From the NCBI GenBank assembly GCA_045578345.1, contig JAZNKB010000007.1:85150-149149 (forward strand): a DNA stretch of 64,000 nt, in the 5' to 3' direction. This DNA comes from Candidatus Onthoplasma sp. (GTDB lineage Bacteria; Bacillota; Clostridia; Christensenellales; UBA1242). Below the pieces are notes generated by a model. That model saw only the letters and a list, made by a program, of their open reading frames with translations. It had not been told where the DNA came from and made no database searches. Each line of letters starts with the position of its first letter. Positions within the stretch are counted from its first letter, which is position 1. The position numbers were made by a program, and so were the translations under genes. Positions 7,496 through 63,706 of this stretch are shown piece by piece.

Positions 7496-7508
7496 CATAA
7501 ATTTAAAG

Positions 7509-12424: not shown

Positions 12425-12573
12425 GATGGCTCGAGTTGTTACGTTTTGCTTAGGTGCTACGCAAAGTCGCAAAACCCAATCAGCTCTCGCCTAAAGGGAA
12501 AGCGGATATTAAATTAAGATGGCTCGAGTTGTTACGTTTTGCTTAGGTGCTACGCAAAGTCGCAAAGCCCAAT
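12422..12573 (+). repeat. tandem duplication: two 59-nt copies at 93-nt period, the first starting at the sleB stop codon
   Basis: 12422-12480 and 12515-12573 are identical except for one A/G difference. Each copy contains a GTTTTGC...GCAAAAC stem. Confidence 0.9.
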
Positions 12574-12743
12574 TAACTTTCGTCTTGGGAATAAGTGGGT
12601 TATTTACGGTTATTAGTTTGTTGGTGTTTGCTAGATATAAATTAAGAAAAAGTGTGATTACAAAAATAATCAAGATCTTGCTTGAGTGTTTAAGGTGCGG
12701 GATAAACATATTGTTTAGCAGGTTTGGGTATGGGATTGTTTAA
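12519..12743 (+). CDS. possible small membrane protein (74 aa) starting inside repeat copy 2
   Basis: ORF track. One hydrophobic segment (GISGLFTVISLLVF). Local G+C is clearly higher than other spacers. No convincing RBS. Confidence 0.25.
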   Translation: MARVVTFCLGATQSRKAQLTFVLGISGLFTVISLLVFARYKLRKSVITKIIKILLECLRCGINILFSRFGYGIV

Positions 12744-14446: not shown

Positions 14447-14512
14447 TAAATAAATATTTATTATATTTAATAATTCCGCACGGTTGTGGAAAAAATAAAA
14501 AGGGGAAATATT

Positions 14513-17500
14513 TTGAAGGGGAAAATATTAAGTTTAAAAATTGTTTTGACGTTGTTGCTTTTGTTGACGGCGAGTTTTTGCTTTGTTGCAAATCCAATAA
14601 ACGAAACAAAGAATTCTACGAAGACAATTGTTGCGTTGGAAAAAGTTAAGCTTGGGACAGATGAAGAAGAATTTAGTGCGCTTGCAGATGGAGGCGTGAT
14701 TCTTTCTGTTGAAAAAGTTAAAGTTAACAGCAACGAAACCGAGTATCAAGATGAAGACGAAAATACATATAGTTATCCAAACCTACTAATGGATGGAGCT
14801 CATAAAACGTTCTATGGGTCTTATGATGCAGTTTTGGAAAAACATCAAAAAGATTATGAAAAAGATAATCCTAATCCATATTCACCGTCGAGTGATGCTC
14901 CTGTTTATAATTCGGGTAATGAAAGTTACGATAGCAGACTATATACTTTCATGGATATTCCTAATAAGGATTCTTCAAAAACAGTTGTTGAAGACGGCAA
15001 GTTTGTTAAACTTGATAACACAACAAGTTCTGGAAAGATTGTAATGCCGGATGACGATAAATTTCAAGAAGCTGTTATGATTTCATTCGGTGCTTATGTG
15101 TTGGATCAAGGTGTTATTGAAACTGCAATCAATGACGATCCAGCAACAACAGATATAAACGAAACCTTTTGCGCAAAAATAACTCAACTAGAAGTTGAAG
15201 TGCATAAAGATGGAAAAAAACAAACAAATATTCCTAACGTTAGAAATATTGGAACTGCCGGAACTGGATTGTATTTCGATTTTTGTTATTTAATCACTCA
15301 AGAAGAAGACAATTCAAATGAAGGATACTATCAACTTAGTTTTAAATATTTGGTTAATTATGTTGAATATAATGCAAACTTCGAATTCTATATATTAAAC
15401 AACTCAACATATAATCAACAAGTCAAACCTAACGGGCAAGACTTAGGGTATGAATCACGACCAACTTTAGGGTGGATTGAAAGCGGTGCAAATAGTGAAT
15501 TTGTTAAAAATCCAAATAATGGCGACAATTATGTTAGATATATGATTGGTTATCACGGAATCTCTTCAGATTACTTTGCTTACCCAACAATCACATATGA
15601 TTACACAAAATATAAATTGACTTATGATCATATAGCAAACCAAAAGAAAACCTCTTATGACTTATCTGTTTCATATAAAAAAACTGGTGAAGCATCATTA
15701 ATTATGACTGCAACATCAAGTTCTGGAACAACCACAACCCCTTTCGAACTTGTTGATTATCACGAATTAAATTTAAACAATTTTGTTACAATAATGTTCA
15801 CAGAACCAGGGACATATGAATTTAATAGTGTATACTTATATCGTGGATATAACTCCAATGTTGCTCCGGATTTGGATTTTGCTCCAATAACAACAAGACT
15901 TTCAATTCATGGAATGAGTGTGCAATACTCAAAAACAAATCAAGAAAGTGCAAATCTTCAATATTTTGAATTGGCATATGAAGAAGGAAATAATGTTGAT
16001 TTAATTATTCCAAATGGATATGAATTGAGTTCAGAGCTTGAAGATAATCAAACACTTGGTTTTGTTTATAAGTTGATTAAAAGAGAAACTCTTGAAGGTG
16101 ATGATGCTAGCGAAACAAAAATGGAAAGAGAAGGAAATATTCTTTCTTCAAATAGCTTAAATTCGTTAATGAACGGAACTTTGTTGAATTCTTCTCACAA
16201 TTCAACTGAAGACTCAGATTTGAAATATTTAACAGAAGAAAGAACTGATGTTGATGCAACAAATAAAGAAGTTACATTGTTGAGAATTAACGATGAAGAT
16301 CAATACACATCAGAAATTGGCGGAAACATTCAAACTATTCTAGATAAAATTGAATATGTTGAAACAAATCAGGGGTCTTTGTGGATTCAAGGTAATGACA
16401 AATTCACTTCAAACAGTTTCTATTATTATAGTCCAACAAACATTGAATTGTTCAAAATAGATGATGGTGGCACACCTGCAAATGCAGCTGACGATACATG
16501 GGTTTCAACCGATTTAACATCTTCATCATTCACAAATATTACAACTTTCAATAAAAAAGGTTATTATCTTGCGTTTATTGAAGTTGAGCCAAGTGGAATG
16601 GCAAGTTCAAACAGTTTCTGGCAAATCTTTGCATTCCAATACACTGCAAGCTCAGTTAACATCAATATCAAAGCTGTTGACGATAAAGGTACTGAAGAAA
16701 CAGCTGACGATACAAGAGTTGATGTTGCGGGTGGAAAATTTACAAACAAACCAGTAGAAATCTCTTGGGTTAAACCTGGAGTGTTTGATAGAGAAATTTT
16801 AGGTTATTATTATTTATCAAAAAATGAAGTGAAGGACAAAGATCAACTTCTTAAAACAGATAAAGAAGAGTTGGTTGTTGTTGAAGAAAAAGTATATAAT
16901 GGTGAGATTTGTTGTGTTGCTCAGTTGGGTGATAGAACACAAATTCCAGAAAATTCATTTGGTAAATATTTAATTCGATTGGAAAGTGAAGGAGATAGTG
17001 CAACACTCAAAACGTTCACAATCGACCGCCAACCAATAGCTGGAGTGCAACCATACTTAATTCAAGCACATGAAACAGCAAATTCAATTTATTATTCTTT
17101 CAAAACGGATGTAAATAATCAGATAATTCCAATTGACAATTCAGTTACTGATAGTTATGCAACATTAAAATGGGACGATAAAGATAGTAATGCTGACATC
17201 ACGGCAACTTATTCATTCACACCATTTGAAATTGCTACAAAAACAGACGCCCCTGTGAATATGATGAATGGAAACAATGGTGCTGACTGGGTGTTAAGCA
17301 ACTACGTTTTAGGTAATACTAGTTTCGGCTTAGAATTGGTTAGACCTGTTTCTGAATCTCTTGTTTCAGGCGAAAGTGTTTTATTCAGTCAGGGTATATA
17401 TTTAATCACACTCAAAGATGAGGCTGGAAACGAAACGGTTTATGCGTTTGTGATTGATAGAACTAACGGGTACTTCAAAATTGGAGAAGGAGAAGATAGT

Positions 17501-20500
17501 CAATTCGTTACAAACACAACAGTTGTTTCAGGAGAAAATATAGAATTTGATATCGGTGAATACAAAGCGTTTAAACTTGATTTGACACCAGACACTGATT
17601 TGCAAAAGTTTGTTAATGCGGCTGCAACAAATGATTACACAAACTTCCCAAAATATTATTCAGACGCATGGAACAAAACATCTTTATCTAAGTTGTTCCA
17701 AAAAAATGGAAGTGATTATTATTTTACAATCGAAAATATTGGTGTTGTTACATACGATGGCGAGTTGCTAGATAAAGATCCAAATGCTCCAACTGAAGTG
17801 GAGGACGAAATTATATATGATGAGAGTGAAAATTCAACATATTATCACCGAACAATTTACATTAAAAGCATAAATAGTGTTTATACAACACATAATTCGA
17901 TTTATAACACAAGTAATTCTTATATCAATGCAATTATTAACAAAGACAATGCAAGAGGAGCGGTTTATCATTCAAATGTTAAAATTGATATTGATAATGT
18001 TCCTGAGTTTGGACAAGAAACCCAAAATATAAAATTGTTAGATACAGGAAAAGGTGACACTCATGAGCAAGGAATTTCAAAAGCAGAAGCAACAAGTGCA
18101 AAGCATGTTGGTTTCACTTGGATTAAAGGTTCTGGTCAGTTTGAAGTTTCAAAGGTTTATTATAAGATATATTCATTAAGTCAAAATTCATGGGATAACA
18201 ATCCTGAAACAGATAATGTTTATTTTTACTATAGCAACGACTCAGATCCAATTATGGCATATGCAAATGGAGAAGCTAAACCTGGAACAACCGATGAGGG
18301 TGAAAGATGTGTAATTTCGTTTAATAATAACAATGAAAGTAAAGCTGGTCTTTATGTTGTAACAAGAGAATATAAGGAAATTGAAAACGCAGACTTGGGT
18401 GAAGATGTTAGGATTAGAAATTATTACTTCATTGTTGATAGAAACGGAATCATTCAAGGTGAAGTTGGTGGAAATATTAAGTTAGAACTTATGGAAGGCC
18501 AAACAGAACTTTCAAAGAGTGATTTCTCTCTTCAAAACGCAGATTATGGTGTTCTAGATGATGAAGAATCGGGAATTTCTAATGAAAAGTATTATATATA
18601 TTTGTCAACAACAAAACTTCCAGCAACCCTTAATATTCCAACAGGAAAATATGTTGATGAAAACAATCACAGCAGTAGTTTGTATGAAGCTGGTAAATTG
18701 GATGTTAGAGTGTATTATATTAACACTAAAAATCAAATCAAAGGACAACCAGATCAAATTAAAATTTACGATTCAATTTATATGGCTAATAAGGACAAAC
18801 TAATAGTTGGTGCAGATGGAACATATACAATTGATATATATGAATATCTGTCTTATGAGAACATAGTTATTCGCGATCTTCTCACAGAATCATCGTCTGG
18901 AACGAACAAAGATAGAAGAGAATGGTTGTTCTTGCCGGGTAGATATGTTGTTAGAATCTCTGATAACGTTAAGGATTCATCGGAAAAGAAACAAGTAAAA
19001 CTTATTGGTTTTGAAATTGTGTCAAAAGATGAAACAGGTCCAGAAATTGATAAATACACTGGCTCAACAAAGCAGGACATGATTAAGTTGAACGAATTGT
19101 CGTCAGGAACAACAGAAAACAACTTTACTGTAAGTCAAGAATACTTAAAAGTTGTTCTTCCTCCATATGATGAAAATATTGAAACAAGAGCTCAAGTTGA
19201 CCCATCTTATATTGTTGTTAAACAATATGTTGGAAACAGCACTGTTGGTGAAGATTATTTGATTCACGACTATGTTCCTGGTGGGGCAATAAGTTTAACA
19301 GAAAATTCAAAGTTTGTTACAATTGATGATAACGGAACAGAAAATGACAAAAGTGATGATTTAATCAATATTTGGTTAGACACAAAACTAAGAGTTGACC
19401 CAGATGATCCAAATTCAGAAATTGACTATGATAATTTAAATAAAGCTTTAAGGTATGAAATTACAATAAGATATAAATTAAATAATCTCAAAGATTCTAA
19501 TGATAGAAATTGGACAAAGGAAAATTGTGAAAGATATAAAAATTGTTACATATATTACACCGATAATAATGAATTGGTAGAGTATTATCAAACAACTTAT
19601 ACAATAAGAATCGACCGTGAAGCGCCAAGCAAAAATATAACTGAATTGAACACAAACGATCCGATGGCTAATGATTATGTTACAGATCAAGAAGTTGACA
19701 GTATGTTTGAAAATGGTGTTCATCGTACGGGTTCTAACTTATATTTTACAAAACAATATTCAAAATATTATCAAACAAACAGAGAAAACAAAGGTCATAT
19801 TTATGCTTACATGGTTTATGGTAAAACAATTTTTGATTGGACTGATGTAAACAAAGTTTTAGTTAAAAAAATTGGCACATACGCTGATCTTGCGCAATAC
19901 AACTTAACATTACCAGTTGTGGATGAGGGTTCTTATAATAAAGTTGAAGCTAAAGAAAGAACTTATGGTCAGCTTGGTGAGTTTAATGAAAGCAACACTT
20001 ATTATGAAGTTGTTGAATTCGATTTTGCGGGTAATGCAACTCAATATGTGATTCATTATGAACCAGTAGCACCAATGATTGAAATTCCAATAATTGGTAC
20101 GTTAACAACGAGTGGAGAAAAATCTGTTAAAATAACATTGGATGAAAACGAACAAATTAACATTTTCGAACTTAAATTAGGAAATTGGGAAGAATTTAGA
20201 AGAAATGATAATTTCTATAAAATTGAATTGTTTAAATCTGGCAAATCAATTTATTCCGTTTTCACAAATGCAACAACTGACTATGAAAAAGAACTTCAAA
20301 CAATTGTTGAAAAAATCGAAAAAGAGAAATTCGGATTCTTCACAATAACAATAACATCACGTAAAGGTGAAATTGTTGATTCACGTGTGGTTTTAAGCAA
20401 GGTTTCAAGTTCAATTAATATAAACCTTTTCAACAGTGAAGATGTGATTCCTTTAGATATTGAAGACTTGATTATTAAAGGTGATTCATATAAAATTGAT

Positions 20501-23134
20501 TTAAATGGTGCGAACATTTATGATGAAGAAAAAGAGATTTGGTATTTTGCAACTCAAATCGTTTTAATTTCAGGAAATTCACCAACTCCAACAATCTACA
20601 CAGGAACTTACGACAGCAGTTTAAATTCAATTATTTACACAAATGAGGCTGGAGACGAAAAAAGATTCGTTGATTGTGACGCTTCAACAACTTATTATAT
20701 TGAAATGAAAGAAGTTGTGGGGACTGTAACAAAATATAGATTTAATACAGCTGGCAGAGAATTTGTTGTTCTTGACTTTGAAGACGTTAATGGTGAAGAA
20801 GCAAATTATTATAGAGGTTCACTAGATACAGATTTTGTATATTATGGTTTCTCAAGTGCAACATTAAAATATGATGAAACAATTTATTCAAGCACTATAT
20901 ACAAGAAGAATAATGGAGAATATAAACCATTAGATCGCAGACCTGATGGAAGCTATTCTGACCCACGCATTACATCATTTTCTAAAAATGATGGATACTA
21001 TGAGTACAACATTGCTGAACCAGTAAATGAATTAATTGAAGTTAAAATTGAATTAATTTACGATGGTGATGTTGAGATAACATACTTTATTACAATTGAC
21101 ACAAGAATTTCCAATGTTGTTTTGAGAGATTATAACACGGCTGAAACGAGAAACATCATTCAAAAATTTTCAAACAAAAACTATTATGATGATTCAATTC
21201 GTGCAAACAGTGTTGGCTCAGGGATTATGAATCTTCAATGGGACAACATTGAAGGAAATGATTATTTTGATTATAAATATAGACTCTATGAAGAATTAAA
21301 AGACGACAAAGGTTATAGAAAATACAAATTAATTAATGGCGTGTATGTTGAAGATGAAGAAGGTGAAATTGGCCTCAAATTAAACGGAAAGAATAGTACT
21401 GTTATTGCAACAGGAAATGATAGTGAGGGTGTGTATGTGTTCGAAATTCGAGTATACGGCAAGGATGGAACATATCTTGGAAACAGACTTTTTGCTTTTG
21501 AAGTGAAAGAAGTTAACACTCAAGTTTATTATGTGAGAAATCAAGAAGGTGCTGCAATTCAACCAAATTCATGGTTTAAATTCACTGAAGTACCATCTAT
21601 TTTGGCTAACGCAACCGAATTCAATAATGTTAACAAAAATTTGGAACTTCCGCTTTATATAACAAATCAAAATTTGGAAGTTGTTATCACAGCAATGAAT
21701 ATTGAGCCTATATCTAAAACTTATTCTCCAAAAGATGAAAAAGGAAATACAATTTATGAGCTAACAATTCATAAATTATCAAAACCAAATGTTTATGATA
21801 TTGTATTTGGTGTGATTAAATACGATGTGTCATCACAACTTGTAACAAATGTTCAAATTATTGGTGAACAAAATTATGAAGTTGGAAAAACAACAAATTT
21901 CACTATTGCAGGACTAAAAAATACCAGTGTTTCAATTTCGGGAGATGTTAATGAAGCTTTAACAGCGTTAGGCGGAGACATTGCAAAGAAAAATATTGTT
22001 TACATAAATGCTTACTATAATGATGAGTTAATTTCTTCAACTCCATTCAATAATGAATATACTATTCCAGGAAATGGTCAATACTCTTTCACTTTCACAG
22101 ATTTGGCAGGAAATGTGCATGAGTTTATTGAAGACGAAGATGGAAATTCAATCGATTCACTTGATTTACTTAAAGTTTATGTGATGAGAGAAGTTGTTGT
22201 GTTAATTAATGGTGAAGCACCTGTTAGCAATGCGTTCTATAATAACAATGTAACATTAACTCTTTATGCAAGTAATAAGTATGTGACTGGAAGCGTTGAG
22301 GTTAAGGCAGAGAAAAATGGTCAGACTTATATTCCTGAAGGATATAATCCATATATCTTCTCTGATTATGGAACATATAGAGTTGTTATAACTGCAAAAT
22401 ACAACAACGGAACAAACAACTATGATTTACAAAAAATTATCACATTCACAATAATAAATGTTAATGAAGCAAGAAAGTCTATCGACTTAACAAGTTTAAA
22501 TGGAAGTACAATCACAAAAGTTGTTAATTCTTCTGGGCAAAACGTAACAACAGCATTTAAAACAATGATGAAACAAAACTCAACTAAGGGTGGTTTAAAT
22601 ATTTCTTATGAAGATGTCTTAGAGTATGAAACAAATCCTGAAAACAAAGATAAGTTATTTGTTACAAGTGGAAAAATAACTTTCACATTAACTTATTTAG
22701 TGAGTGATGAAGAATATCCAGATCGTTCAATAGATTTGAGTTTTACATTAACAAACAAAACAGCAAGTATTCCTTGCACACTTGAAAAAGGTGAATCAAC
22801 AACAAAGAGTTTCACAATTTACTTCAACCCATCAATTATTTATGAGCAAGTTGGGGAATCTTATGTGTACATAAATGATAAAATGGTTGCACACATTGGT
22901 GAAAATTCTGATAACAACGAAACAAAAATTAAAATTTCTTTCAAAGGAAATGGTGATGGTGATTATTACATAAAACTTGTAAGTTCTTCAGGTGTGATTT
23001 TGGATAGTTACAAACTCACAATCAAAGAACCGCTTAACGCAAGTGCAATTATTATTATCATAGTTGTAGTTGTTGTGGTTGCGACTGTTGTTGTAACAAT
23101 TATCTTGTTAAGACGCAAGATGAGGATTAGATAA
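14513..23134 (+). CDS. giant (~2870 aa) secreted surface protein with C-terminal TM anchor
   Basis: Uninterrupted 8.6-kb ORF. A TTG at 14513 lies 7 nt after AAAGGGG and yields a classic signal peptide (KGKILSLKIVLTLLLLLTASFCFVA). The C-terminus is a 27-residue I/V-rich stretch (AIIIIIVVVVVATVVVTIILL) followed by RRKMRIR, with no LPXTG. N/T/Y/E-rich beta-type composition. Confidence 0.85.
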   Translation: MKGKILSLKIVLTLLLLLTASFCFVANPINETKNSTKTIVALEKVKLGTDEEEFSALADGGVILSVEKVKVNSNETEYQDEDENTYSYPNLLMDGAHKTFYGSYDAVLEKHQKDYEKDNPNPYSPSSDAPVYNSGNESYDSRLYTFMDIPNKDSSKTVVEDGKFVKLDNTTSSGKIVMPDDDKFQEAVMISFGAYVLDQGVIETAINDDPATTDINETFCAKITQLEVEVHKDGKKQTNIPNVRNIGTAGTGLYFDFCYLITQEEDNSNEGYYQLSFKYLVNYVEYNANFEFYILNNSTYNQQVKPNGQDLGYESRPTLGWIESGANSEFVKNPNNGDNYVRYMIGYHGISSDYFAYPTITYDYTKYKLTYDHIANQKKTSYDLSVSYKKTGEASLIMTATSSSGTTTTPFELVDYHELNLNNFVTIMFTEPGTYEFNSVYLYRGYNSNVAPDLDFAPITTRLSIHGMSVQYSKTNQESANLQYFELAYEEGNNVDLIIPNGYELSSELEDNQTLGFVYKLIKRETLEGDDASETKMEREGNILSSNSLNSLMNGTLLNSSHNSTEDSDLKYLTEERTDVDATNKEVTLLRINDEDQYTSEIGGNIQTILDKIEYVETNQGSLWIQGNDKFTSNSFYYYSPTNIELFKIDDGGTPANAADDTWVSTDLTSSSFTNITTFNKKGYYLAFIEVEPSGMASSNSFWQIFAFQYTASSVNINIKAVDDKGTEETADDTRVDVAGGKFTNKPVEISWVKPGVFDREILGYYYLSKNEVKDKDQLLKTDKEELVVVEEKVYNGEICCVAQLGDRTQIPENSFGKYLIRLESEGDSATLKTFTIDRQPIAGVQPYLIQAHETANSIYYSFKTDVNNQIIPIDNSVTDSYATLKWDDKDSNADITATYSFTPFEIATKTDAPVNMMNGNNGADWVLSNYVLGNTSFGLELVRPVSESLVSGESVLFSQGIYLITLKDEAGNETVYAFVIDRTNGYFKIGEGEDSQFVTNTTVVSGENIEFDIGEYKAFKLDLTPDTDLQKFVNAAATNDYTNFPKYYSDAWNKTSLSKLFQKNGSDYYFTIENIGVVTYDGELLDKDPNAPTEVEDEIIYDESENSTYYHRTIYIKSINSVYTTHNSIYNTSNSYINAIINKDNARGAVYHSNVKIDIDNVPEFGQETQNIKLLDTGKGDTHEQGISKAEATSAKHVGFTWIKGSGQFEVSKVYYKIYSLSQNSWDNNPETDNVYFYYSNDSDPIMAYANGEAKPGTTDEGERCVISFNNNNESKAGLYVVTREYKEIENADLGEDVRIRNYYFIVDRNGIIQGEVGGNIKLELMEGQTELSKSDFSLQNADYGVLDDEESGISNEKYYIYLSTTKLPATLNIPTGKYVDENNHSSSLYEAGKLDVRVYYINTKNQIKGQPDQIKIYDSIYMANKDKLIVGADGTYTIDIYEYLSYENIVIRDLLTESSSGTNKDRREWLFLPGRYVVRISDNVKDSSEKKQVKLIGFEIVSKDETGPEIDKYTGSTKQDMIKLNELSSGTTENNFTVSQEYLKVVLPPYDENIETRAQVDPSYIVVKQYVGNSTVGEDYLIHDYVPGGAISLTENSKFVTIDDNGTENDKSDDLINIWLDTKLRVDPDDPNSEIDYDNLNKALRYEITIRYKLNNLKDSNDRNWTKENCERYKNCYIYYTDNNELVEYYQTTYTIRIDREAPSKNITELNTNDPMANDYVTDQEVDSMFENGVHRTGSNLYFTKQYSKYYQTNRENKGHIYAYMVYGKTIFDWTDVNKVLVKKIGTYADLAQYNLTLPVVDEGSYNKVEAKERTYGQLGEFNESNTYYEVVEFDFAGNATQYVIHYEPVAPMIEIPIIGTLTTSGEKSVKITLDENEQINIFELKLGNWEEFRRNDNFYKIELFKSGKSIYSVFTNATTDYEKELQTIVEKIEKEKFGFFTITITSRKGEIVDSRVVLSKVSSSININLFNSEDVIPLDIEDLIIKGDSYKIDLNGANIYDEEKEIWYFATQIVLISGNSPTPTIYTGTYDSSLNSIIYTNEAGDEKRFVDCDASTTYYIEMKEVVGTVTKYRFNTAGREFVVLDFEDVNGEEANYYRGSLDTDFVYYGFSSATLKYDETIYSSTIYKKNNGEYKPLDRRPDGSYSDPRITSFSKNDGYYEYNIAEPVNELIEVKIELIYDGDVEITYFITIDTRISNVVLRDYNTAETRNIIQKFSNKNYYDDSIRANSVGSGIMNLQWDNIEGNDYFDYKYRLYEELKDDKGYRKYKLINGVYVEDEEGEIGLKLNGKNSTVIATGNDSEGVYVFEIRVYGKDGTYLGNRLFAFEVKEVNTQVYYVRNQEGAAIQPNSWFKFTEVPSILANATEFNNVNKNLELPLYITNQNLEVVITAMNIEPISKTYSPKDEKGNTIYELTIHKLSKPNVYDIVFGVIKYDVSSQLVTNVQIIGEQNYEVGKTTNFTIAGLKNTSVSISGDVNEALTALGGDIAKKNIVYINAYYNDELISSTPFNNEYTIPGNGQYSFTFTDLAGNVHEFIEDEDGNSIDSLDLLKVYVMREVVVLINGEAPVSNAFYNNNVTLTLYASNKYVTGSVEVKAEKNGQTYIPEGYNPYIFSDYGTYRVVITAKYNNGTNNYDLQKIITFTIINVNEARKSIDLTSLNGSTITKVVNSSGQNVTTAFKTMMKQNSTKGGLNISYEDVLEYETNPENKDKLFVTSGKITFTLTYLVSDEEYPDRSIDLSFTLTNKTASIPCTLEKGESTTKSFTIYFNPSIIYEQVGESYVYINDKMVAHIGENSDNNETKIKISFKGNGDGDYYIKLVSSSGVILDSYKLTIKEPLNASAIIIIIVVVVVVATVVVTIILLRRKMRIR

Positions 23135-34646: not shown

Positions 34647-34746
34647 TTAAAAGGAGAAATTATATTGAAACAAGTTCAATATATATTCTCTTAAAATCTG
34701 CTTGTTATTTGCAAGCAAAACAACCAAATTTAAAAGGAGAAATTAT
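34647..34746 (+). repeat. copy E1 of an ~83-nt two-hairpin SD-duplicating repeat
   Basis: 17-nt TTAAAAGGAGAAATTAT occurs at 34647-34663 and 34730-34746. Between them: hairpin TATATTGAA-acaag-TTCAATATA (34661-34683) and hairpin TGCTTG-7nt-CAAGCA (34699-34717). Confidence 0.8.
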
Positions 34747-42014: not shown

Positions 42015-45000
42015 TTATACAGATTTTTCAACAATAAACACAACTGTGGTTGTTTGCATTGAATTGTTTTTGATGCTGTAAATAGCGTAATTGCTTTGAG
42101 GATCAAATTTCAAAGTTAAACCTAATTGATATTTATTTGCATAAGTTTCAAGAAGACCAGAAATTAAAGCATAGTTAAAGTTTTCAGTGTGGTTTGACCA
42201 ATTGTATCTGAATTCAAACACGCTTCTTCCAGATTCATTAGTGTCAGTTTTATATTCTGCGTAAATTAAAGCGTTTAACAAGTATGATTGCATTGAATTT
42301 GGCTCCAAACCAGATTGAGAATATAATTGATATGTATTGTCAGCTCTAAATTCTTTCAAATAGTTTTCAATTGCGTAATTTTCAATTGGTTCGTTTTCGT
42401 TTTTGTAATTAGTTATTGTTTGAGCAATTTGTTCACTTGTCATGCTGAATGTTGAATTTGCATAGTAGTTATAAGCATATTGACTATCTTCAGGAGTTTT
42501 TCTGCTTGTGAGATATTCCGAAGAAATGATGTGGTTTTCATCAGTGAAAGTCAACTCGTTTGGAGCTCCAGTTGGAACAACTGAATCAAGAGTTAAGAAA
42601 TATGTGTGAGAAGAGATTCCATAACCATTATTTAAGCTGTTGAAATAAATTCTGTTGTCTGAGAATGTTAAATCAACCACATACCAATGTTTTGCTGTTT
42701 GATCACTTGTTGTGCTTAAATAAACTTTATTCCATGCATGGTCAACCGTTGTTTGAACTCCAGTTGGAGACATTGTTGTGTCGAGATAAGAATAATTTCC
42801 ATTAACAACAACCGCTTCAATTCCTTCAATGGCGCAAAGCAGAGCAAATGCTTTTGAATAAGATTGACTTGTTGCAAAACTTGATCCAATAATTAGGTCT
42901 CCATTTGGTTGCATTGAAATGTTTTCAAAAATTCCTTCGAGATAATAATGTTTATACATTCCATAAGTTGCAATGTTTGAAGATTCAACAGAACCCGAAA
43001 CGAAGTATTTATTATTTGCATTAGAATAGTAAGTTAAATCAAAACTATATTCCAACCAGTCGAATATTGCAGTAACCTTGTCAAGATCGGTCATATTGTT
43101 TGTTACAATTGCAGATAAAACGAGTTTTGCATTGTTGTAAACAGTTTCTGCAACCGAACTATCACCAACAAACTTTGGTTTTCTTCCATGTTGAACTGCT
43201 TGCAATAATTGTTCAGTTGTTGTAACAAGCATTTCTTGGTTGCTGTCAATTTTGAAAACTCCTGATTCACTTTTTCTTAAATATAAATCTACATATTCAA
43301 AATCGTTGCCATAGTTTAAATTTGTTTGAACTCTCATAAGAGAATTGTCATTATCAATTTTTTCAACATTAAGAGCATTTTTATAATATAATTGGAATAT
43401 ATCATTTCCAGTTGAGTGATTTAAACTGAAATTAGATAAAATGTTAAATTCAGGATAAGCAGAAATAAGTTTCATACAAACGTGTTTAAACAGGTCGTTA
43501 TCAGAAGTTGTTGCTTCTTTAACTAAGTTGAGCCAAGTTTCATCTTTATTGAAATTGTATGTTTTTGAATTGTTTGCCTCAGTGGCAATTCTGATGATTG
43601 CTTCTCTTAAAGTTTCTTGCTTAATTGCATTTTCATCTTCAACAAAATGTCTTTCAATAAGTAAACTTAATCCTGTGTTGATGTCAATATCATAAAGATA
43701 GTGGTACCATAAAATATTTTTCAATTCTTCGGCTGAGCCAATTGAGAAATCGTGATTGTTTCCATACATATAAACTGAATATCTTAAGAAATCTCGTTCT
43801 TGAGTGAAAATATATCTTTCAGTTACGCTGGTTGCTGAACTTGAAGCAAATTCTTTTGAGTTTCCACCAACTGTTTCCACCATTGAATAAATTGAAATTT
43901 CGTAGTTTCCTTGAATGGTAATATAGTCATTAATGTTGGTGCCTGTTTCACCATAAACTTTAAATTCGTAAGTTATGTTGTTTGGATCTTTTAATCTAAT
44001 TAAATAATAATCCGCATTTTCATCACCTATCCAGCGCATTGAATATTCATCTTTTGAAATATTTTCAAATATAATGTTGGTTGGTGATTTTAAGCTGTTT
44101 AATTTTTCAAGTCGAGCATATGTCGCAGATTCGTTTGCATCAGCATAATAACTATCTTCTTTTGGTGCAAGAGCTGTGATGTAGAAATAATAAACACCTT
44201 GTTGAGATAAATATTCTGAAACGTCGACTGATTCTGTTATTTCAAAATAATTTTTCAATCCCATGTTGTCCAAGTAATCAATGTAGTCACTGTCGTTTTC
44301 TTTAACAATTCTAACACGATATCTTTCAGCATTGTCAACAGGTTTGAATGACAAAGTGAAAATTCCTTCATTTTCAATAACTTGAATATTTTCCACGCCT
44401 GGGAGTTGTTTCATTAAGGCGTAATTTGCAACATTATATTCACTTGCAGCAACATTGAAAGACGTTTCTTTTGGAAGAGAACGAATTTGAATTTCATAGT
44501 TATTTGCTGAAGTTAAATATTTAGAAATATCAATTTCATATAAACCCATTGCATCATCTGAATTTGCTGTGACGGTGTGCTTGTTGTAATTGATTAAAAT
44601 TTCGTAACCGCCAGCATCTTGAATTCCGTAGAATTTAAGGACGTATTTAGTTTCACCATTGCTGATTTGTTTTGAAACAGGAGTGATGGTTCCGTTGATA
44701 TTATAGAATTCTGGTTTAGGTAAAATCTTAATATGAGAAACGCTTAAAGCTTCAGAGAGTTGACTGTCTGAATACACACTGTGGATGTCTGCAACTGCTT
44801 GAACTTTAACAGAATAATCAGTATATTCACCTTCGCTTATAATGTATTGACTCAAATCAATAGTTGTTGTTGTGTATATTGTGTTAATTTTAACATAATC
44901 ACTTGCATCTTTACTTTTCACATAAACATAATAACCAATTGCGTTGTCTGTTCCAGTGAAAGTAAGTTCATAAAGTTTTTTGCTGCTAAAACCTTGAGTT

Positions 45001-46559
45001 GAACTAAATGTTGGAGTGTTGAGTTGTTTAGTGTAATTCAAGTCAACACTTTTAATTCGTGGTTGAAGACCTTCAACAAAAGCTGAAACTATAACTGTTT
45101 GATTGTTTGAAGAAAGGGTTTCAATTGGAATTTCAAAATTATTTGTGTCTAAAACATAATAACTTGTTCCGCACTCAACAAAATAATACGCATTTTCAAT
45201 TTCGGTCCAAGTTAAACCAGAATCAGAACCCTCAACAGTTATATCGGCAACTTTATTAGATATAGTTGGATTTGAAACAATTTCACTTATTTTTGATGAT
45301 AAATAATTTCCAACACCAACCGATTTGATTGCAACGGCAAGGAAATCTTCTGTTAACAACATGCTTGTAATGTTTGAATCCAATTTGTATTCCTTAAGTC
45401 CGTTTTGTGTGAACACAAGAACTTTAAATTCACCAATCAAGTTAGGGTTTACAGGAGTCCAGTTTGCAACATAACAACTATTTGTTTCGCTATAATCAAT
45501 TGTCAATGCTGGAGCAGAAAGAACTTCGGTGTTTTCAAATAAAATTGCCGAACTTAAATCTGAGTCAATATAGAATGCACCTTCAGTGCTTGTTGTAACA
45601 AATCTTGATTGAGTTTTAAAAGAGTATTGAGATATGTTGTCAAAATTAAGTTGACCATTCAAAATGAAAGGTTCAAAGAATTTTGTTAAATTAACATTAG
45701 CTAAGTTATCACTGAACATTTCAATGCTTTCAGATGAGTTTATTTCAACAGTTCTTTCAAGATTTGCACAACTGATGGAAATTGCATTTGCATTTTTGTC
45801 GATGGCAGTGACGAGATGTAATTCGTTGTTCACATTGTAAACTTGTCCGTTTCTTGGGGATGAAAGTTTAATTGTGTGAGTATATGTAGTTTTCTCAGTA
45901 AAACTGCTTTCAATGAGGGTTGTTTCGTCAGACAAAACTGCGCTAACATAGAATTTATAATTACCTGGATCTGTTAATAAAGAACCAAAATCAAATTGAT
46001 TTGAATTAAAAGAATATTCTGGCAAGTCGGCAATTTTAATTGTTTCAGAAGTGTCTCCAGTTAAAACATTCCCTGTTTTATCAAAAATGATTTTGTCGTT
46101 TGGTGTGATAATTTTCACAAGATAATAGCTGGCATTTTCAACAACATTCCATGTTAAAGTTGTTGCATTAATTTTAACGTTTGTTGGGGTTTTAACATTC
46201 CCGCTATGTTTATATGTGTAAACATCGGAGAACGAACTTGCATGGGCTTTGCTTGAATTTGCTTTAATTTTAACAGAGTATGTGTTGCCAACAATGAAAA
46301 TTTTTGATGCATCATATCGTATTTCATTGCCAACAATTTCTGCATAGTTATTTTGTTTTGCATTAACAGTGAGTTCGTTGTCGTTAATCGAGATGGTATA
46401 ATATTCAGCATTTTTAATGGAATTAAAAACAATTATTCCACTGTTGATACTTGTTACCGTTGGTGTTGATAGAGTTGGTTTGCTTTTGCTTTTGCACGCA
46501 GAAAAAGAGATAGGAACAATTAAGCACATTAACAAAATTAATATTTTTAATTTTTTCAT
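42015..46559 (-). CDS. 1514-aa surface lipoprotein: Fn3/Ig-like repeats plus C-terminal transglutaminase-like domain
   Basis: Lipobox ISFSAC. Repeated ~90-aa modules (A..Y.V...). C-terminus SYSKAFALLCAIEGIEAVVVNG...DHAWNKVYL...WYVVDLT fits the transglutaminase core, with Ser at the Cys position. Confidence 0.75.
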   Translation of the reverse strand: MKKLKILILLMCLIVPISFSACKSKSKPTLSTPTVTSINSGIIVFNSIKNAEYYTISINDNELTVNAKQNNYAEIVGNEIRYDASKIFIVGNTYSVKIKANSSKAHASSFSDVYTYKHSGNVKTPTNVKINATTLTWNVVENASYYLVKIITPNDKIIFDKTGNVLTGDTSETIKIADLPEYSFNSNQFDFGSLLTDPGNYKFYVSAVLSDETTLIESSFTEKTTYTHTIKLSSPRNGQVYNVNNELHLVTAIDKNANAISISCANLERTVEINSSESIEMFSDNLANVNLTKFFEPFILNGQLNFDNISQYSFKTQSRFVTTSTEGAFYIDSDLSSAILFENTEVLSAPALTIDYSETNSCYVANWTPVNPNLIGEFKVLVFTQNGLKEYKLDSNITSMLLTEDFLAVAIKSVGVGNYLSSKISEIVSNPTISNKVADITVEGSDSGLTWTEIENAYYFVECGTSYYVLDTNNFEIPIETLSSNNQTVIVSAFVEGLQPRIKSVDLNYTKQLNTPTFSSTQGFSSKKLYELTFTGTDNAIGYYVYVKSKDASDYVKINTIYTTTTIDLSQYIISEGEYTDYSVKVQAVADIHSVYSDSQLSEALSVSHIKILPKPEFYNINGTITPVSKQISNGETKYVLKFYGIQDAGGYEILINYNKHTVTANSDDAMGLYEIDISKYLTSANNYEIQIRSLPKETSFNVAASEYNVANYALMKQLPGVENIQVIENEGIFTLSFKPVDNAERYRVRIVKENDSDYIDYLDNMGLKNYFEITESVDVSEYLSQQGVYYFYITALAPKEDSYYADANESATYARLEKLNSLKSPTNIIFENISKDEYSMRWIGDENADYYLIRLKDPNNITYEFKVYGETGTNINDYITIQGNYEISIYSMVETVGGNSKEFASSSATSVTERYIFTQERDFLRYSVYMYGNNHDFSIGSAEELKNILWYHYLYDIDINTGLSLLIERHFVEDENAIKQETLREAIIRIATEANNSKTYNFNKDETWLNLVKEATTSDNDLFKHVCMKLISAYPEFNILSNFSLNHSTGNDIFQLYYKNALNVEKIDNDNSLMRVQTNLNYGNDFEYVDLYLRKSESGVFKIDSNQEMLVTTTEQLLQAVQHGRKPKFVGDSSVAETVYNNAKLVLSAIVTNNMTDLDKVTAIFDWLEYSFDLTYYSNANNKYFVSGSVESSNIATYGMYKHYYLEGIFENISMQPNGDLIIGSSFATSQSYSKAFALLCAIEGIEAVVVNGNYSYLDTTMSPTGVQTTVDHAWNKVYLSTTSDQTAKHWYVVDLTFSDNRIYFNSLNNGYGISSHTYFLTLDSVVPTGAPNELTFTDENHIISSEYLTSRKTPEDSQYAYNYYANSTFSMTSEQIAQTITNYKNENEPIENYAIENYLKEFRADNTYQLYSQSGLEPNSMQSYLLNALIYAEYKTDTNESGRSVFEFRYNWSNHTENFNYALISGLLETYANKYQLGLTLKFDPQSNYAIYSIKNNSMQTTTVVFIVEKSV

Positions 46560-59792: not shown

Positions 59793-59819
59793 AAAGAACG
59801 AAAACTTTCGTTCTTTTTT
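59791..59819 (+). terminator. intrinsic terminator
   Basis: GAACGAAA-ac-TTTCGTTC followed by T6. Confidence 0.85.
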
Positions 59820-59917
59820 CATTATGCTTTTTAAAGTGATTAAGCAAAGCAAAAAACAGCAAGCAATCAAATTCCAAAGTTGACTTTAAATAATCATGAT
59901 TACAAAAGTAATCAAGT

Positions 59918-60235
59918 CTATTTGTTTGCTTCGTTGAGCATTTTGATAAATGTTGAAACAGAAGGAACGTTCTGAGGTTCTAAATTTAAAATGTCATCAA
60001 TCAGTTTTTGCTTTTCTTCTGGCAACATTTTCTTGTCAATAATGTTTTTGTCATCAAGTCCTGCCAAAGTTTCCAGGCTGCAGTTTAAAAATTCCGCCAT
60101 TTTAACAAAAGTGTCTAAAGGTGGTTGATGAGTTCCTTTTTCATACGTTCTTATTGTATTGGTTGTTATGTTACAATAGTCTGCGAGTTGCTGTTTAGTT
60201 TTCTTTAATGTTTGTAATAAATGTTTAATTTTCAT
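59918..60235 (-). CDS. XRE-family HTH transcriptional regulator
   Basis: LKKTKQQLADYCNITTNTIRTYEKGTHQPPLDTFVKMAEFLNCSLETL. Start moved to MKIKHLL. Confidence 0.8.
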   Translation of the reverse strand: MKIKHLLQTLKKTKQQLADYCNITTNTIRTYEKGTHQPPLDTFVKMAEFLNCSLETLAGLDDKNIIDKKMLPEEKQKLIDDILNLEPQNVPSVSTFIKMLNEANK

Positions 60236-60338
60236 AATAAATCCTATTACAATTATAAAAACGCTAAACATTTTCGACATTTTTATATAAAAAGTTGTTT
60301 TAACACTAAACTTTTATAGCGTTTTTACTTGACATGTA

Positions 60339-60368
60339 TTGACATATGCTATAAATCTTTAGTAAAAT
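60339..60368 (+). promoter_or_regulatory. candidate promoter (two overlapping TTGACA hexamers)
   Basis: TTGACA at 60329 and at 60339. The second, with an 18-nt spacer, reaches TAAAAT (60363-60368). Confidence 0.45.
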
Positions 60369-60415
60369 TTCTATGTAAATGCAGGATAACATAAAAATAT
60401 TTAGCATTTTCAATA

Positions 60416-60529
60416 CAAAACAATCAAATAAAAAGGAGAAAATTATATACGAAGCAAGTTCGATATAGTTAAACCTTTTTATCGCTTGTCTTTGCAAGCA
60501 AAACAATCAAATAAAAAGGAGAAAATTAT
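60416..60529 (+). repeat. copy E2 of the SD-duplicating two-hairpin repeat
   Basis: 31-nt CAAAACAATCAAATAAAAAGGAGAAAATTAT occurs at 60416-60446 and 60499-60529 (period 83 nt). Hairpins at 60444-60467 and 60484-60499. Confidence 0.85.
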
Positions 60530-60803
60530 GAAAGAAGTAAAATTGTTTACAGAAGAAGAAAAAGAAAAATTAAAAGAGAGAATTAAAGATTTTGAAAATG
60601 TTGAGTCATATCAGATGATGAAAATTCGATTTATGTCAGAACTAAACAGAATAGATAAAGCAATTGTTTTTGCAAAAGGTGAGCAAGTTGAAGAATTAAA
60701 AGAGTGTGCAGAAAAGCATATTAAACAACTTGAAAATTACAGAAAAGACCTTATCGATTGTTTGGGGTTCATTTTTGGGTATAAGGATGAACAATATTGT
60801 TAA
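60528..60803 (+). CDS. small coiled-coil protein (91 aa)
   Basis: The ATG lies behind AAAGGAG of the second repeat arm. Divergent from the XRE gene. Confidence 0.55.
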   Translation: MKEVKLFTEEEKEKLKERIKDFENVESYQMMKIRFMSELNRIDKAIVFAKGEQVEELKECAEKHIKQLENYRKDLIDCLGFIFGYKDEQYC

Positions 60804-60844
60804 AGATATAAATTTAAATAAATTTAAAAATTTTTTAATTTGTG

Positions 60845-60873
60845 TTGACAAACTCGTTTTGATGTGTTATTAT
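60845..60873 (+). promoter_or_regulatory. sigma-A type promoter with extended -10
   Basis: TTGACA (60845-60850), 17-nt spacer ending in TGt, TATTAT (60868-60873). Confidence 0.6.
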
Positions 60874-60879
60874 ACTTGC

Positions 60880-60901
60880 ACACCGAAGCGGGTGTTTTTT
60901 T
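60880..60901 (+). terminator. terminator-like hairpin directly after the promoter
   Basis: ACACC-gaagcg-GGTGT followed by T7. Confidence 0.55.
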
Positions 60902-61019
60902 AACGAGCGTTTGAAAAAATGTAAGTTAACAAGACATATAGTTTCACGTTGTCTTATTAACTAGCAGATCATTTTGTTCTAAAACATCCAAAATGTAATG
61001 GTAAAAAGGAGAATAAATT

Positions 61020-61193
61020 ATGGCAGGAAAGAAAGCTAAATCTAAAAGAGAAAAAATCGTTTTAGAATGTACTGAATGTAAATCAAGAAATTACAGCACA
61101 ACTAAAAACAAGGCAAACGACCCAGAAAGAAAGGAACTCAACAAATATTGCCCTAAGTGCAAGAAAACAACAGCACACAAAGAAACAAAATAG
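61020..61193 (+). CDS. rpmG: 50S ribosomal protein L33
   Basis: Hand translation: [57 protein letters not shown] (57 aa, below the ORF-track cutoff). RBS AAAGGAG. Confidence 0.9.
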
Positions 61194-61201
61194 AGGTGAA
61201 T

Positions 61202-61501
61202 ATGTCTAATAACAATCAAACTTCCACAAATGAAGTAGAAGTGAAGGCAAACAACAAAGTTGTTGAAGTTAAAGCCAAAGATGCGACAAAAGACAAAAAG
61301 AAAAAAGAAAAAGTTAAAAAACCAAACAAAGTTGCAAAAGCTTTGAAAAATACTGGTAATGAACTTAAAAAAGTTACTTGGCCAGGTTTCAAACAGGTTG
61401 TTAAGCAAACAGGAATTGTTCTTGCGTTCGTGTTAGTTTTTGCAGTTGTTATTTTTGGTTTTGAAAGACTTTGCGCTTGGCTTACTGGTCTTTTGATCTA
61501 G
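61202..61501 (+). CDS. secE: preprotein translocase subunit SecE
   Basis: K-rich N-terminus, ELKKVTWPGFKQVVKQT, single C-terminal TM. The ATG lies behind GAGGTG. Confidence 0.85.
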   Translation: MSNNNQTSTNEVEVKANNKVVEVKAKDATKDKKKKEKVKKPNKVAKALKNTGNELKKVTWPGFKQVVKQTGIVLAFVLVFAVVIFGFERLCAWLTGLLI

Positions 61502-61516
61502 AATAAAGGAGAAAAT

Positions 61517-62077
61517 ATGGCTATTGTAGATAAAAATATCGATAAAGAACCTAAATGGTATGTGTTGCACGTTTTCTCTGGATATGAAAACATTGCAAAA
61601 CAAAATCTTGAAATTACAATCGACAAATACAATCTTCAAGACAGAATTTTCCAAATTGTAATTCCAATGGAAGATGAACTTGTTGAGAAACGTGGCAAAA
61701 AAGTTCTTGTTCCAAAGAAAACAATGCCAGGTTATATGTTGGTTAAGATGATGTATGGTGATGACATTTGGCACGCTGTAACACGTACTCAATATATCAC
61801 TGGTTTCGTTGGACCTAAGGGTAGACCAATTTGTATCACTGATGACGAAGCAAGAAAAATGGGCGTTGATGGTGGAAATGTTGTTGAAGCAAAACTCGAC
61901 ATTGAAGTTAACGTTGGTGATATGGTTGAAATTATTGAAGGCTCTTTGGCAAGTTTTGTTGGAACTGTTAAAGCGGTTGACAATGAAAACAAAAAAGTTA
62001 CTTGCGCTGTTGAAATGTTTGGTAGAGAGAGTGAAGTTGAACTTTCATTCAGTCAAATCAGATTAAGCAATAACTAA
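61517..62077 (+). CDS. nusG: transcription termination/antitermination factor NusG
   Basis: KWYVLHVFSGYE NGN domain and KOW motif GDMVEIIEGSLASFVGTV. Confidence 0.95.
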   Translation: MAIVDKNIDKEPKWYVLHVFSGYENIAKQNLEITIDKYNLQDRIFQIVIPMEDELVEKRGKKVLVPKKTMPGYMLVKMMYGDDIWHAVTRTQYITGFVGPKGRPICITDDEARKMGVDGGNVVEAKLDIEVNVGDMVEIIEGSLASFVGTVKAVDNENKKVTCAVEMFGRESEVELSFSQIRLSNN

Positions 62078-62082
62078 GCATA

Positions 62083-62110
62083 TTGACAAATCCTAATTTT
62101 GTGATATAAT
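62083..62110 (+). promoter_or_regulatory. sigma-A type promoter with extended -10, immediately after nusG
   Basis: TTGACA (62083-62088), 16-nt spacer ending in TGa, TATAAT (62105-62110). Confidence 0.7.
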
Positions 62111-62129
62111 TAAGCAACTTGGAGGAAAT

Positions 62130-62495
62130 ATGCAATATTTTATAATGCCATTAAACTGCAGAGATAAACATTATGATTTTGACATGGTTGTTGTAAAAGA
62201 CAAAGATTGGATAAAATTTGCAAAATCAGTTTTGTTGGCAAGAACAGATGGTGTGAGTAGTGTTTCATTAATAGGCTTTAAAGTTATAATAAGAGATAAT
62301 ATTGCAAGGTTTAAGTTGTTTTGGCAAGACGTTGCTTATCACGAATTGGAATTTCGTTTAGATCCGTTTGGAAGAGATAGTAAGAATTATAGTGATTTAA
62401 TTTCTGAAATTTGGCAAAACATAATGTCTGATTATTATGGTCACAAAGGTTATGATATTGCTCTTGAAAGAAAAATGAATAATTATAACATTTAA
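62130..62495 (+). CDS. hypothetical protein (121 aa)
   Basis: ORF track. RBS GGAGGA. No family recognised. Confidence 0.55.
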   Translation: MQYFIMPLNCRDKHYDFDMVVVKDKDWIKFAKSVLLARTDGVSSVSLIGFKVIIRDNIARFKLFWQDVAYHELEFRLDPFGRDSKNYSDLISEIWQNIMSDYYGHKGYDIALERKMNNYNI

Positions 62496-62512
62496 CTTAT
62501 TAAGGAGGTTTT

Positions 62513-62899
62513 ATGAACAAGAAAGAAGTGTTCACAGAATTAAAAAATTCACAAGTGATGGAATTTTTGAAAAATTTTGACAACGAATGCGGATTAAATA
62601 TTGAAACTAGAGATGTGAGAATCTCAAGAGAATTGGAGCATGTTGTACATGTTAGTATTGTTGGTTCTCCAGAATATGATTCAGAAGGAAAATTGGAAAG
62701 ATATAGATTTGATATGAGTTGTAAATTTTATGATGATGGTAGACTTTCTATTAGTTATCTTGCTAGCGACATTGGAACTTTTAAATATTTCAAACCCGGA
62801 ATGGAAGAAGCTTACAAAGAATTGCTTTTAACAGTTTTAACAGGTGAAAAACTTGAAGAATTTAAATCAAAACAAGAAGCAGATGTAAATTCAATATAG
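62513..62899 (+). CDS. hypothetical protein (128 aa)
   Basis: ORF track. RBS AAGGAGG. No family recognised. Confidence 0.55.
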   Translation: MNKKEVFTELKNSQVMEFLKNFDNECGLNIETRDVRISRELEHVVHVSIVGSPEYDSEGKLERYRFDMSCKFYDDGRLSISYLASDIGTFKYFKPGMEEAYKELLLTVLTGEKLEEFKSKQEADVNSI

Positions 62900-62904
62900 A
62901 AAAT

Positions 62905-62995
62905 AGGAAACTATATTGAAAACAAGTTTCAATATTATATACTTTTTAAATTGCTTATCATTTGTAAGCAAAATTATCAATTAAAAAGGAAACTA
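62905..62995 (+). repeat. copy E3 of the two-hairpin repeat (not followed by a start codon)
   Basis: AGGAAACTA occurs at 62905-62913 and 62987-62995 (period 82 nt). Hairpins ATATTGAAA-acaag-TTTCAATAT (62913-62935) and TTGCTTA-7nt-TAAGCAA (62951-62971). Confidence 0.75.
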
Positions 62996-63265
62996 ATCAG
63001 CCTTTAAAGAGAGAGAAAACTTTTGTGGGAGAATTACTAATTCAGTAACACCACACCATAGCGGAAAAATATGTTATTCGCAAGCTCATAAACATATAAT
63101 TCATCTCATTGATTTATTTGTTGGAATATGTCAACGCACTAGTGCGTTTTAAAACAATTCCTTCAAATGTGTCTTCAAATAAATTTGAATTCAAATTGAG
63201 AGAATTGTTTGTGGCGAGTTCTCGCCTTGACATAATTTCCAAAAATAAGTAAAAGGAGAAAAATT

Positions 63266-63706
63266 ATGGCAAAGAAAGTTAAATCAATCGTTAACATTCA
63301 ACTTCCTGCTGCAAAAGCCACTGCTGGTCCGCCAGTTGGTTCATCTCTTGGACCTCACGGAATCAACATTGGAGCATTTGTTAAAGAATTTAACGACAAA
63401 ACTGCTAACCAAGTTGGATTCACAATCCCTTGTGTTATCACAATTTACGAAGACAGAAGTTTTGAATTCGTATTAAAACAACCACCAGTTGCTGATTTAC
63501 TCAGAAAAGAAGCTGGTATCGAAAAAGGTAGCGATAAGCCACCAAAAAACAAAGTTGGAAAAATTAATGTCGATCAATTAAAGAAAATTGCTGAAATGAA
63601 AATGCCTGACTTAACTGCTGCTAGCATGGAAGCTGCAATGAGCATGGTTGCTGGAACTGCAAGAAGTATGGGTATCGTTGTGGAGGGTTGGAATGAAAAG
63701 AAGTAA
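63266..63706 (+). CDS. rplK: 50S ribosomal protein L11
   Basis: [35 protein letters not shown]... RBS AAAGGAG. Confidence 0.95.

Follow-up and report, generated by a model that had tools for sequence, protein, structure and literature searches.

The junction between nusG and rplK is among the most conserved gene junctions of bacteria. A close described counterpart here is the secE-nusG and rplKAJL arrangement of E. coli and the Firmicutes, and in Firmicutes RNAs that interact with ribosomal protein L1 precede rplK; such a leader RNA has a stem of 6-12 bp with an internal bulge, made of a G-A pair and an unpaired A, that mimics the L1 site of 23S rRNA (PMC3616713). Here we describe this junction in a window of 64,000 nucleotides (nt) of DNA from Candidatus Onthoplasma sp. 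(contig JAZNKB010000007.1, positions 85,150 to 149,149), an organism placed in the Christensenellaceae by NCBI and in family UBA1242 by GTDB. Members of this family have genomes smaller than 1 Mb and are possibly partner-dependent (PMC12306168). At the end of the window the order is rpmG, secE, nusG, two small open reading frames (ORF1 and ORF2), 366 nt of non-coding DNA, rplK and rplA. A first-pass annotation, made from the sequence alone, had described the 1.19 kb between nusG and rplK as a promoter-bearing two-ORF cassette. The extra DNA and its parts (a promoter, two ORFs each preceded by a Shine-Dalgarno (SD) sequence, a repeat copy and a structured region) lie where that annotation placed them, and the promoter is strong and the two genes are genuine and without a family. 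They do not, however, make up a single cassette, and the promoter may not be the cassette's own. The spacer is a mosaic, and we consider it probable that it is a long-standing hypervariable gene slot, which lies within the rplK-rplA transcription unit or adjoins it in a clade of gut bacteria with reduced genomes, rather than a recent two-gene insertion.

This proposal draws on a survey of relatives. A NusG scan limited to one genome per species yielded 41 loci of the Candidatus Onthoplasma clade, whose NusG is 65-92% identical to that of the window, and one outgroup locus. Both nusG and rplK are contained in 37 of the in-clade loci. The distance between the two genes ranges from 100 to 1349 nt across the surveyed loci: 18 in-clade loci have a gap of at most 251 nt that holds the mRNA leader only, with or without a promoter, and 16 of the 37 carry in the gap one to three plus-strand ORFs of 100-160 amino acids (aa). 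In many relatives the junction is only about 100 nt long, so the 1.19 kb of the window is indeed additional DNA. In one locus (L019) the conserved cluster is itself broken, with no rplK within 4 kb of nusG and four unrelated ORFs of 391, 191, 95 and 232 aa downstream of nusG (L019:4560-8555).

The first of the two small genes, ORF1, belongs to a family that is found in this gap. Homologues with 44-67% identity (E-values 1e-29 to 1e-56) occur at the same site in six relatives (L001-L005 and L042), whose NusG is 82-92% identical to that of the window (the L001 value comes from a 73-residue fragment) and whose RplK, where rplK lies within the locus, is 97-99% identical. Pairwise scores within this group A run from 1e-23 to 1e-56. 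A database of 5.8 billion protein clusters holds a single ORF1 homologue (P0002, 68% identity), which also lies right after nusG, as do family members from independent metagenome contigs. When an iterated hidden Markov model (HMM) is run against 706 background ORFs, the family comes to include L016 (2.7e-6), L035 (9e-5) and then L028 (3.8e-4), and most of the other top-ranked matches below threshold are gap ORFs too; no family match was found outside the nusG-rplK gap in any relative locus or elsewhere in the window. Members typically measure about 115-130 aa (about 113-133 aa at the outer limits) and stand on the nusG strand directly downstream of nusG, as ORF1 does. A C-terminal motif, W..Phi...PhiG..Y...L, recurs across the groups of slot genes.

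Because the ratio of nonsynonymous to synonymous substitution rates (dN/dS) is 0.18-0.35 in unsaturated pairs of the family (0.29 for ORF1 against L001), its ORFs are real genes under purifying selection. They also evolve fast, with a dN 3-20 times that of nusG in unsaturated pairs. Such genes are being lost as well, since L032 keeps only the N- and C-terminal fragments (4553-4875) of a gene that is intact in L033 (4591-4971), an internal-deletion pseudogene. ORF1 is the local member of a clade-restricted, fast-evolving family of soluble proteins that lack any known domain and whose genes, across relatives, are duplicated, joined by other ORFs, decayed or lost.

The least probable of the explanations that we weighed is that ORF1, ORF2 or both are not genes but open frames that occur by chance in transcribed spacer DNA. 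It would accommodate an ORF2 with no homologue anywhere and two ORFs with no expression evidence. An open frame of 121-128 codons, however, has a chance probability of about 4-6e-5 at this composition, and both ORFs have strong SD sequences at the correct spacing. Codon usage, measured as a log-odds score for which 30 long window genes served as the training set (known genes score 0.19-0.55), is host-like in the annotated frame only: ORF1 scores 0.27 and ORF2 0.46, against at most 0.04 in the other five frames of each. Their GC content (29-30%) and positive GC skew match those of the flanking genes. ORF1, moreover, has kept its open frame in at least seven genomes, with 44-67% identity and a dN/dS of about 0.3. 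Independent goat-gut metagenome contigs span the ORF1-ORF2 junction (62241-62669) with 0-1 mismatches.

ORF2 is of a different kind. Its only match is its own entry, both among the 5.8 billion clusters and in an HMMER search that covered all 1.84 billion representatives of about 15 billion proteins. None of the 48 related loci has it, not even that of the closest relative, L001. There, 3 nt past the ORF1 stop, comes ATAGGAAACTATATTGAAAAC..., the same sequence that trails ORF2 in the window. ORF2 is a strict orphan gene unique to its lineage, with host-like codon usage, lying between ORF1 and the repeat and leader described below, and from these comparisons it is a separate and later addition to the slot. 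A diverged ORF1 paralogue was sought by phmmer, by hhalign, with full-length and C-terminal-motif HMMs and in a six-frame search, all with negative results. The place of ORF2 in the slot and its size fit the ORF1 family, but it scores at most 2.5 bits against the family HMMs. The likeness of the C-terminal endings (...VNSI* against ...VKSI* and ...AKTI*) is anecdotal only.

Nor do ORF1 and ORF2 form a conserved pair, since the six relatives that carry an ORF1 homologue have no ORF2-like partner. Paired occupants of the slot do exist: in group C, another subclade (L014 and L044-L048), the gap holds a different, conserved two-gene unit of a 121-130 aa and a 158-187 aa gene with no known domain, which is unrelated to ORF2. 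These results bear directly on the suggestion of the first-pass annotation that the two ORFs are candidates for a toxin-antitoxin or immunity function. Its observation of two tightly linked, SD-preceded ORFs of 121 and 128 aa is correct, and a type II toxin-antitoxin or toxin-immunity pair, acting as an addiction or defence module with its own promoter, would be in keeping with two adjacent, co-directional small genes that are 17 nt apart behind a strong promoter and encode one neutral product (isoelectric point (pI) 6.8) and one acidic product (pI 4.9). We nevertheless regard such a pair as very improbable, because the pairing is not conserved, ORF2 being found nowhere else, and because neither protein has a recognisable toxin, antitoxin or DNA-binding domain. 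Searches of Pfam, PHROGs, NCBIfam, PADLOC and PDB sequences (the last with the family profile and ORF2) gave no significant match for ORF1 or ORF2, in agreement with the earlier statement that neither has a recognisable family, and Pfam gave none for 19 ORF1-family members and five other slot occupants. A JetB match of ORF1 in PADLOC (E 0.013, 13 bits) was treated as noise. Both proteins are soluble, ORF1 with no transmembrane or hydrophobic segment and ORF2 with no hydrophobic segment. The ORF1 family and the orphan ORF2 are undescribed.

The promoter helps to place the slot genes relative to rplK. As the first-pass annotation had noticed, a near-consensus extended -10 promoter stands just after nusG: it begins 5 nt past the nusG stop (62077), matches the consensus at 12 of 12 positions with the TG extension in addition, and is the top site of a 3.3-kb scan. 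Promoter-like sites are not enriched overall (16 observed against 12.4 +/- 3.8 in shuffles), so the call relies on the perfect match and on conservation in relatives. The TTGACA...TG.TATAAT element is kept just past the nusG stop in all seven group A loci and in L016. ORF-less relatives have a promoter too: in L011, L020 and L022 a TTGACA...TATAAT promoter follows the nusG stop at a position like that in the window, in L018 and L036 one stands 60-80 nt downstream of the stop, and in all five it directly precedes the rplK leader, immediately upstream of the conserved leader start GGAAAC. For this reason the promoter of the window, which had been described as the cassette's own, is possibly not so; we infer that it would be the rplK-rplA promoter or a derivative of it, with the slot genes sitting between promoter and leader. 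L002, L003 and L042 have no intergenic space at all between slot ORF and leader.

We propose that transcription from this promoter, which is of ribosomal strength, would run through ORF1 and ORF2, each translated from its own strong SD sequence. Because no convincing terminator follows (a terminator scan found no such site between 62110 and 63266), transcription probably continues through an 82-nt repeat, an L1-type leader and a 180-nt insertion into rplK-rplA. The cell would then produce the ORF1 and ORF2 proteins along with its ribosomal proteins.

What such proteins might do is a separate matter. An earlier caveat, that both genes might turn out to be universal in the clade with a known housekeeping role, does not apply, as they are neither universal nor matched to a housekeeping function. 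A lineage-specific accessory factor of transcription and translation, binding NusG, the L11 stalk or the ribosome and kept in position for co-expression, would explain several features of the family. Down to a clade NusG identity of about 73%, the slot genes keep strictly to one place and one orientation between nusG and rplK, and they are retained under purifying selection in genomes below 1 Mb. The arrangement in three relatives also suggests translational coupling of the slot gene to nusG: its start and the nusG stop overlap in L035 (TAATG), and L009 and L010 have it within about 10 nt after nusG, with no promoter. Against such a factor, about half of the clade lacks the genes or has lost them, with one pseudogene remnant; the family's 44-67% identity is an extreme divergence beside near-invariant proposed partners (RplK 97-99%); and ORF2 has no relatives. 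We therefore consider this explanation unlikely.

The combination of rapid change, duplication, loss and clade restriction suggests instead a role in binding a changing partner. On this basis we tentatively propose, as a possibility that falls well short of probable, that ORF1 and ORF2 may be dispensable small binding proteins that face a fast-changing partner (phage, competitor or partner organism), and neither core ribosome components nor a toxin-antitoxin pair. Decidedly unlikely, in our estimate, is a bolder reading in which the slot family would be a lineage-specific modulator of NusG and the ribosome or of the L11 stalk, or else a highly expressed interface protein of a partner-dependent lifestyle, and in which ORF2 would be very young, possibly born de novo in the highly transcribed 5' region of rplK.

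Several observations weigh against the picture of a single slot sharing the rplK promoter and filled by related binding proteins. The two genes of the group C unit come with a promoter and a terminator of their own, and the leader there is directly preceded by a second promoter, so that sharing of the rplK promoter is not general. Group A connects to groups C, D, E and G only through sub-threshold matches (E 0.003-0.1 in small databases, with low hhalign probabilities), and for this reason some slot occupants may be unrelated, independent arrivals. The functional proposal is drawn from evolutionary pattern alone, and the structure models are too poor to back any fold or function. AlphaFold2 gave for ORF1, from a 10-sequence alignment, an all-helical and unusable model with a predicted local distance difference test score (pLDDT) of 48.7, and for ORF2, from the single sequence, a weak model of alpha-beta4-alpha3 topology (pLDDT 59.6, predicted template modelling (TM) score 0.42); the best Foldseek match of the latter in PDB had an E-value of 0.075 and TM scores were at most 0.38, and scattered NTF2- or cystatin-like matches among these were not trusted. 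Two metatranscriptomes share sequence words with the region and cover rplK/rplA, nusG and the repeat and leader of relatives that are about 90-95% identical, but in these two runs no sequence fell on ORF1 or ORF2. Finally, in an RNA contig of a relative (about 92% identical) 62077 is followed immediately by 62903, so that exactly the promoter and both ORFs (62078-62902) are missing. This contig again marks the segment as extra DNA between nusG and rplK, and the junction fits the gain or loss of a promoter-plus-ORF unit as a block.

That junction is also an argument for a recently acquired mobile cassette, in which promoter, ORF1 and ORF2 would have arrived together by a mobile element or by recombination. 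The neighbouring pieces do behave as small insertions, the 82-nt repeat being flanked by a 13-nt direct repeat and the 180-nt piece being polymorphic between strains. The surroundings of 62078-62902, however, show neither terminal inverted repeats nor long direct repeats, and neither an integrase nor an attC-like site. The genes annotated between 58.9 kb and the end of the window include no recombinase, ORFs alone being listed for the remainder of the 64 kb. GC content and codon usage are host-like, and a tblastn search of phage genomes found no match to either ORF. The nearest relatives have ORF1 homologues with the same promoter at the same site, diverging roughly in step with NusG, and ORF2 was added separately from ORF1. 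Taken together, these points make a recently acquired cassette improbable, and we retain the reading of a long-standing variable slot.

The region between the slot genes and rplK is composite as well. Its 366 nt consist of a dispersed repeat, a clade-wide leader and a strain-variable insertion, and the first-pass annotation's repeat copy (its E3) and structured region are both upheld, the 285 nt at 62986-63270 folding with z = -4.0 relative to shuffles. The repeat itself folds at z = -2.45. Its other copies lie at 34656-34736 (81% identity, E 4e-12), immediately ahead of the start codon of pheS, and at 60437-60518 (73%), before a small ORF that starts at 60528; these two copies end in an SD sequence plus ATG. 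The 19-mer core of the repeat occurs 3 times against 0.31 expected, and its first hairpin covaries between copies (TGAA/TTCA against CGAA/TTCG). A promoter-like TTGAAA-16-TATACT lies inside it at 62916-62943, and it is flanked by the 13-nt direct repeat AAA(T/A)AGGAAACTA (62901-62913 and 62983-62995), which duplicates the 5' end of the leader. The module also follows the ORF1 homologue in L001, L004 and L005. It may be a portable promoter or 5' untranslated region (UTR) module, or an element resembling a miniature inverted-repeat transposable element (MITE).

The leader that follows is probably an L1 autoregulatory site, as judged from its place and its pattern of conservation. It lies in the 5' UTR directly preceding rplK, where L1-interacting leaders are located, and its motif is present in 33 of the 38 relatives whose locus contains both nusG and rplK, among them those in which the gap is 100 nt. 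A 5-bp helix (63024-63028 with 63051-63055; CGUGG/CCACG) covaries from C-G to U-A (17 against 9 sequences) and flanks an invariant GGGAG and a variable hairpin. Rfam, searched at the gathering threshold and at E <=5, gave nothing real in 60700-63400 and no match to the leader. In 28 relatives the motif ends 15-25 nt ahead of the rplK SD sequence, and in the window a 180-nt insertion follows it. This insertion is shared with L003 only (L003:4615-4794, 88% identity), with compensatory changes in its hairpin (GGCGAG/CTCGCC against GGCAAG/CTTGCC). It is absent from L002, L004, L005 and L042 and from a near-identical goat-gut strain, in which 63060 is joined to 63241; a metagenome scan for it gave one unrelated chance match only. 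In the predicted fold it pairs with the SD/AUG region of rplK, and it may on that model change L1 autoregulation or the translation of rplK.

Table 1. Features of the nusG-rplK junction and its flanks (window positions, unless a locus is named)
Feature	Position	Strand	Details
rpmG	61020-61193		
secE	about 61202-61501		
nusG	61517-62077	+	Pfam NusG 1.5e-23 plus KOW; left boundary of the slot
Sigma-70 promoter, extended -10	62083-62110	+	TTGACA (62083-62088)-16-TGaTATAAT (62102-62110)
ORF1	62130-62495	+	121 aa; SD GGAGG at 62121-62125, ideal spacing
ORF2	62513-62899	+	128 aa; SD AAGGAGG at 62502-62508, ideal spacing
82-nt dispersed intergenic repeat copy (E3)	62900-62988	+	two hairpins
rplK-rplA mRNA leader	62986-63060	+	GGAAACUAAUCAGCC...AAAGAGAG...UGUGGGAG-hairpin-CCACA
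180-nt structured insertion, strain-variable	63061-63240	+	between leader and rplK SD
rplK (L11)	63266-63706	+	Pfam Ribosomal_L11 1.3e-28, Ribosomal_L11_N 2.3e-24; SD AAGGAG at 63253-63258; right boundary of the slot
rplA	from 63693		overlaps rplK
Group C two-gene unit	L014:4660-5687; L044:3001-4094; L046:714-1738		

The window has further features outside this junction. A second variable junction (59793-61019) lies on the 5' side of the cluster, between a DAGK-like gene and rpmG, and contains an XRE-type helix-turn-helix gene (59918-60280, minus strand) and an orphan small ORF (60486/60528-60803), with a near-consensus promoter and a hairpin (60845-60895) ahead of rpmG. The same junction measures only about 110-170 nt in L014, L019, L036 and L042, and among the relatives compared a homologue of the XRE-type gene is found at it in L003 only. 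Elsewhere, two tandem 71-nt copies (12422-12492 and 12515-12585; 93% identity, 93-nt spacing) follow closely on an ORF that ends at 12424, and the 3' end of the ORF at 6983-7495 carries a highly acidic, Asp/Glu-rich repetitive tail (7241-7498). Two giant ORFs, of 2882 aa (14486-23134, plus strand) and 1514 aa (42015-46559, minus strand), are present in a group whose genomes are below 1 Mb, and these could encode surface or adhesin-type proteins relevant to a partner-dependent lifestyle.

At present this is a descriptive finding, of taxonomically restricted small genes in a variable hot spot. Throughout a clade of gut bacteria with reduced genomes, a conserved bacterial gene junction proves to be a hot spot at which genes turn over. 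If functional, the slot proteins are candidates for lineage-specific biology, such as interaction with a partner or phage or the tuning of translation, in organisms that are unculturable. ORF2 provides a clean case for how orphan genes appear, and L1 autoregulation can be studied at this locus on rplK leaders that naturally carry or lack the 180-nt insertion.

Compared with described systems, the locus has much in common with the L11 operon region of E. coli and the Firmicutes (PMC3616713), with which it shares the gene order rpmG-secE-nusG-rplK-rplA and a promoter just downstream of nusG. Relatives likewise have the GGGAG-bearing leader helix directly before rplK, and the rplK-rplA overlap allows translational coupling. 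Unlike that operon, this clade has one to three extra protein genes between promoter and leader, the 180-nt insertion parts the leader from the rplK SD sequence in the window and in L003, and the leader matches no curated model. The terminal repeats or attC site that mark a mobile gene cassette (an integron, MITE or insertion sequence unit) are missing at 62078/62902, as is a recombinase among the annotated genes from 58.9 kb onwards. Type II toxin-antitoxin modules resemble ORF1 and ORF2 in being small, co-directional genes behind one promoter, but they have recognisable toxin or antitoxin domains and a conserved pairing, whereas ORF1-type genes occur with no ORF2-like partner. Immunity arrays of polymorphic toxins offer a likeness in evolutionary pattern only, with small soluble alpha+beta proteins, divergent tandem paralogues and variable copy number; here the neighbourhood showed no toxin gene, no secretion system and no match to an immunity family, and the location is a ribosomal cluster. 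The slot resembles the variable hot spots in which orphan small genes are found, sharing with them homologues confined to one clade, rapid divergence, presence and absence, tandem additions and pseudogene remnants. It differs from the typical hot spot in lying inside a highly conserved gene cluster of a host genome smaller than 1 Mb, at a position that is fixed throughout the clade.

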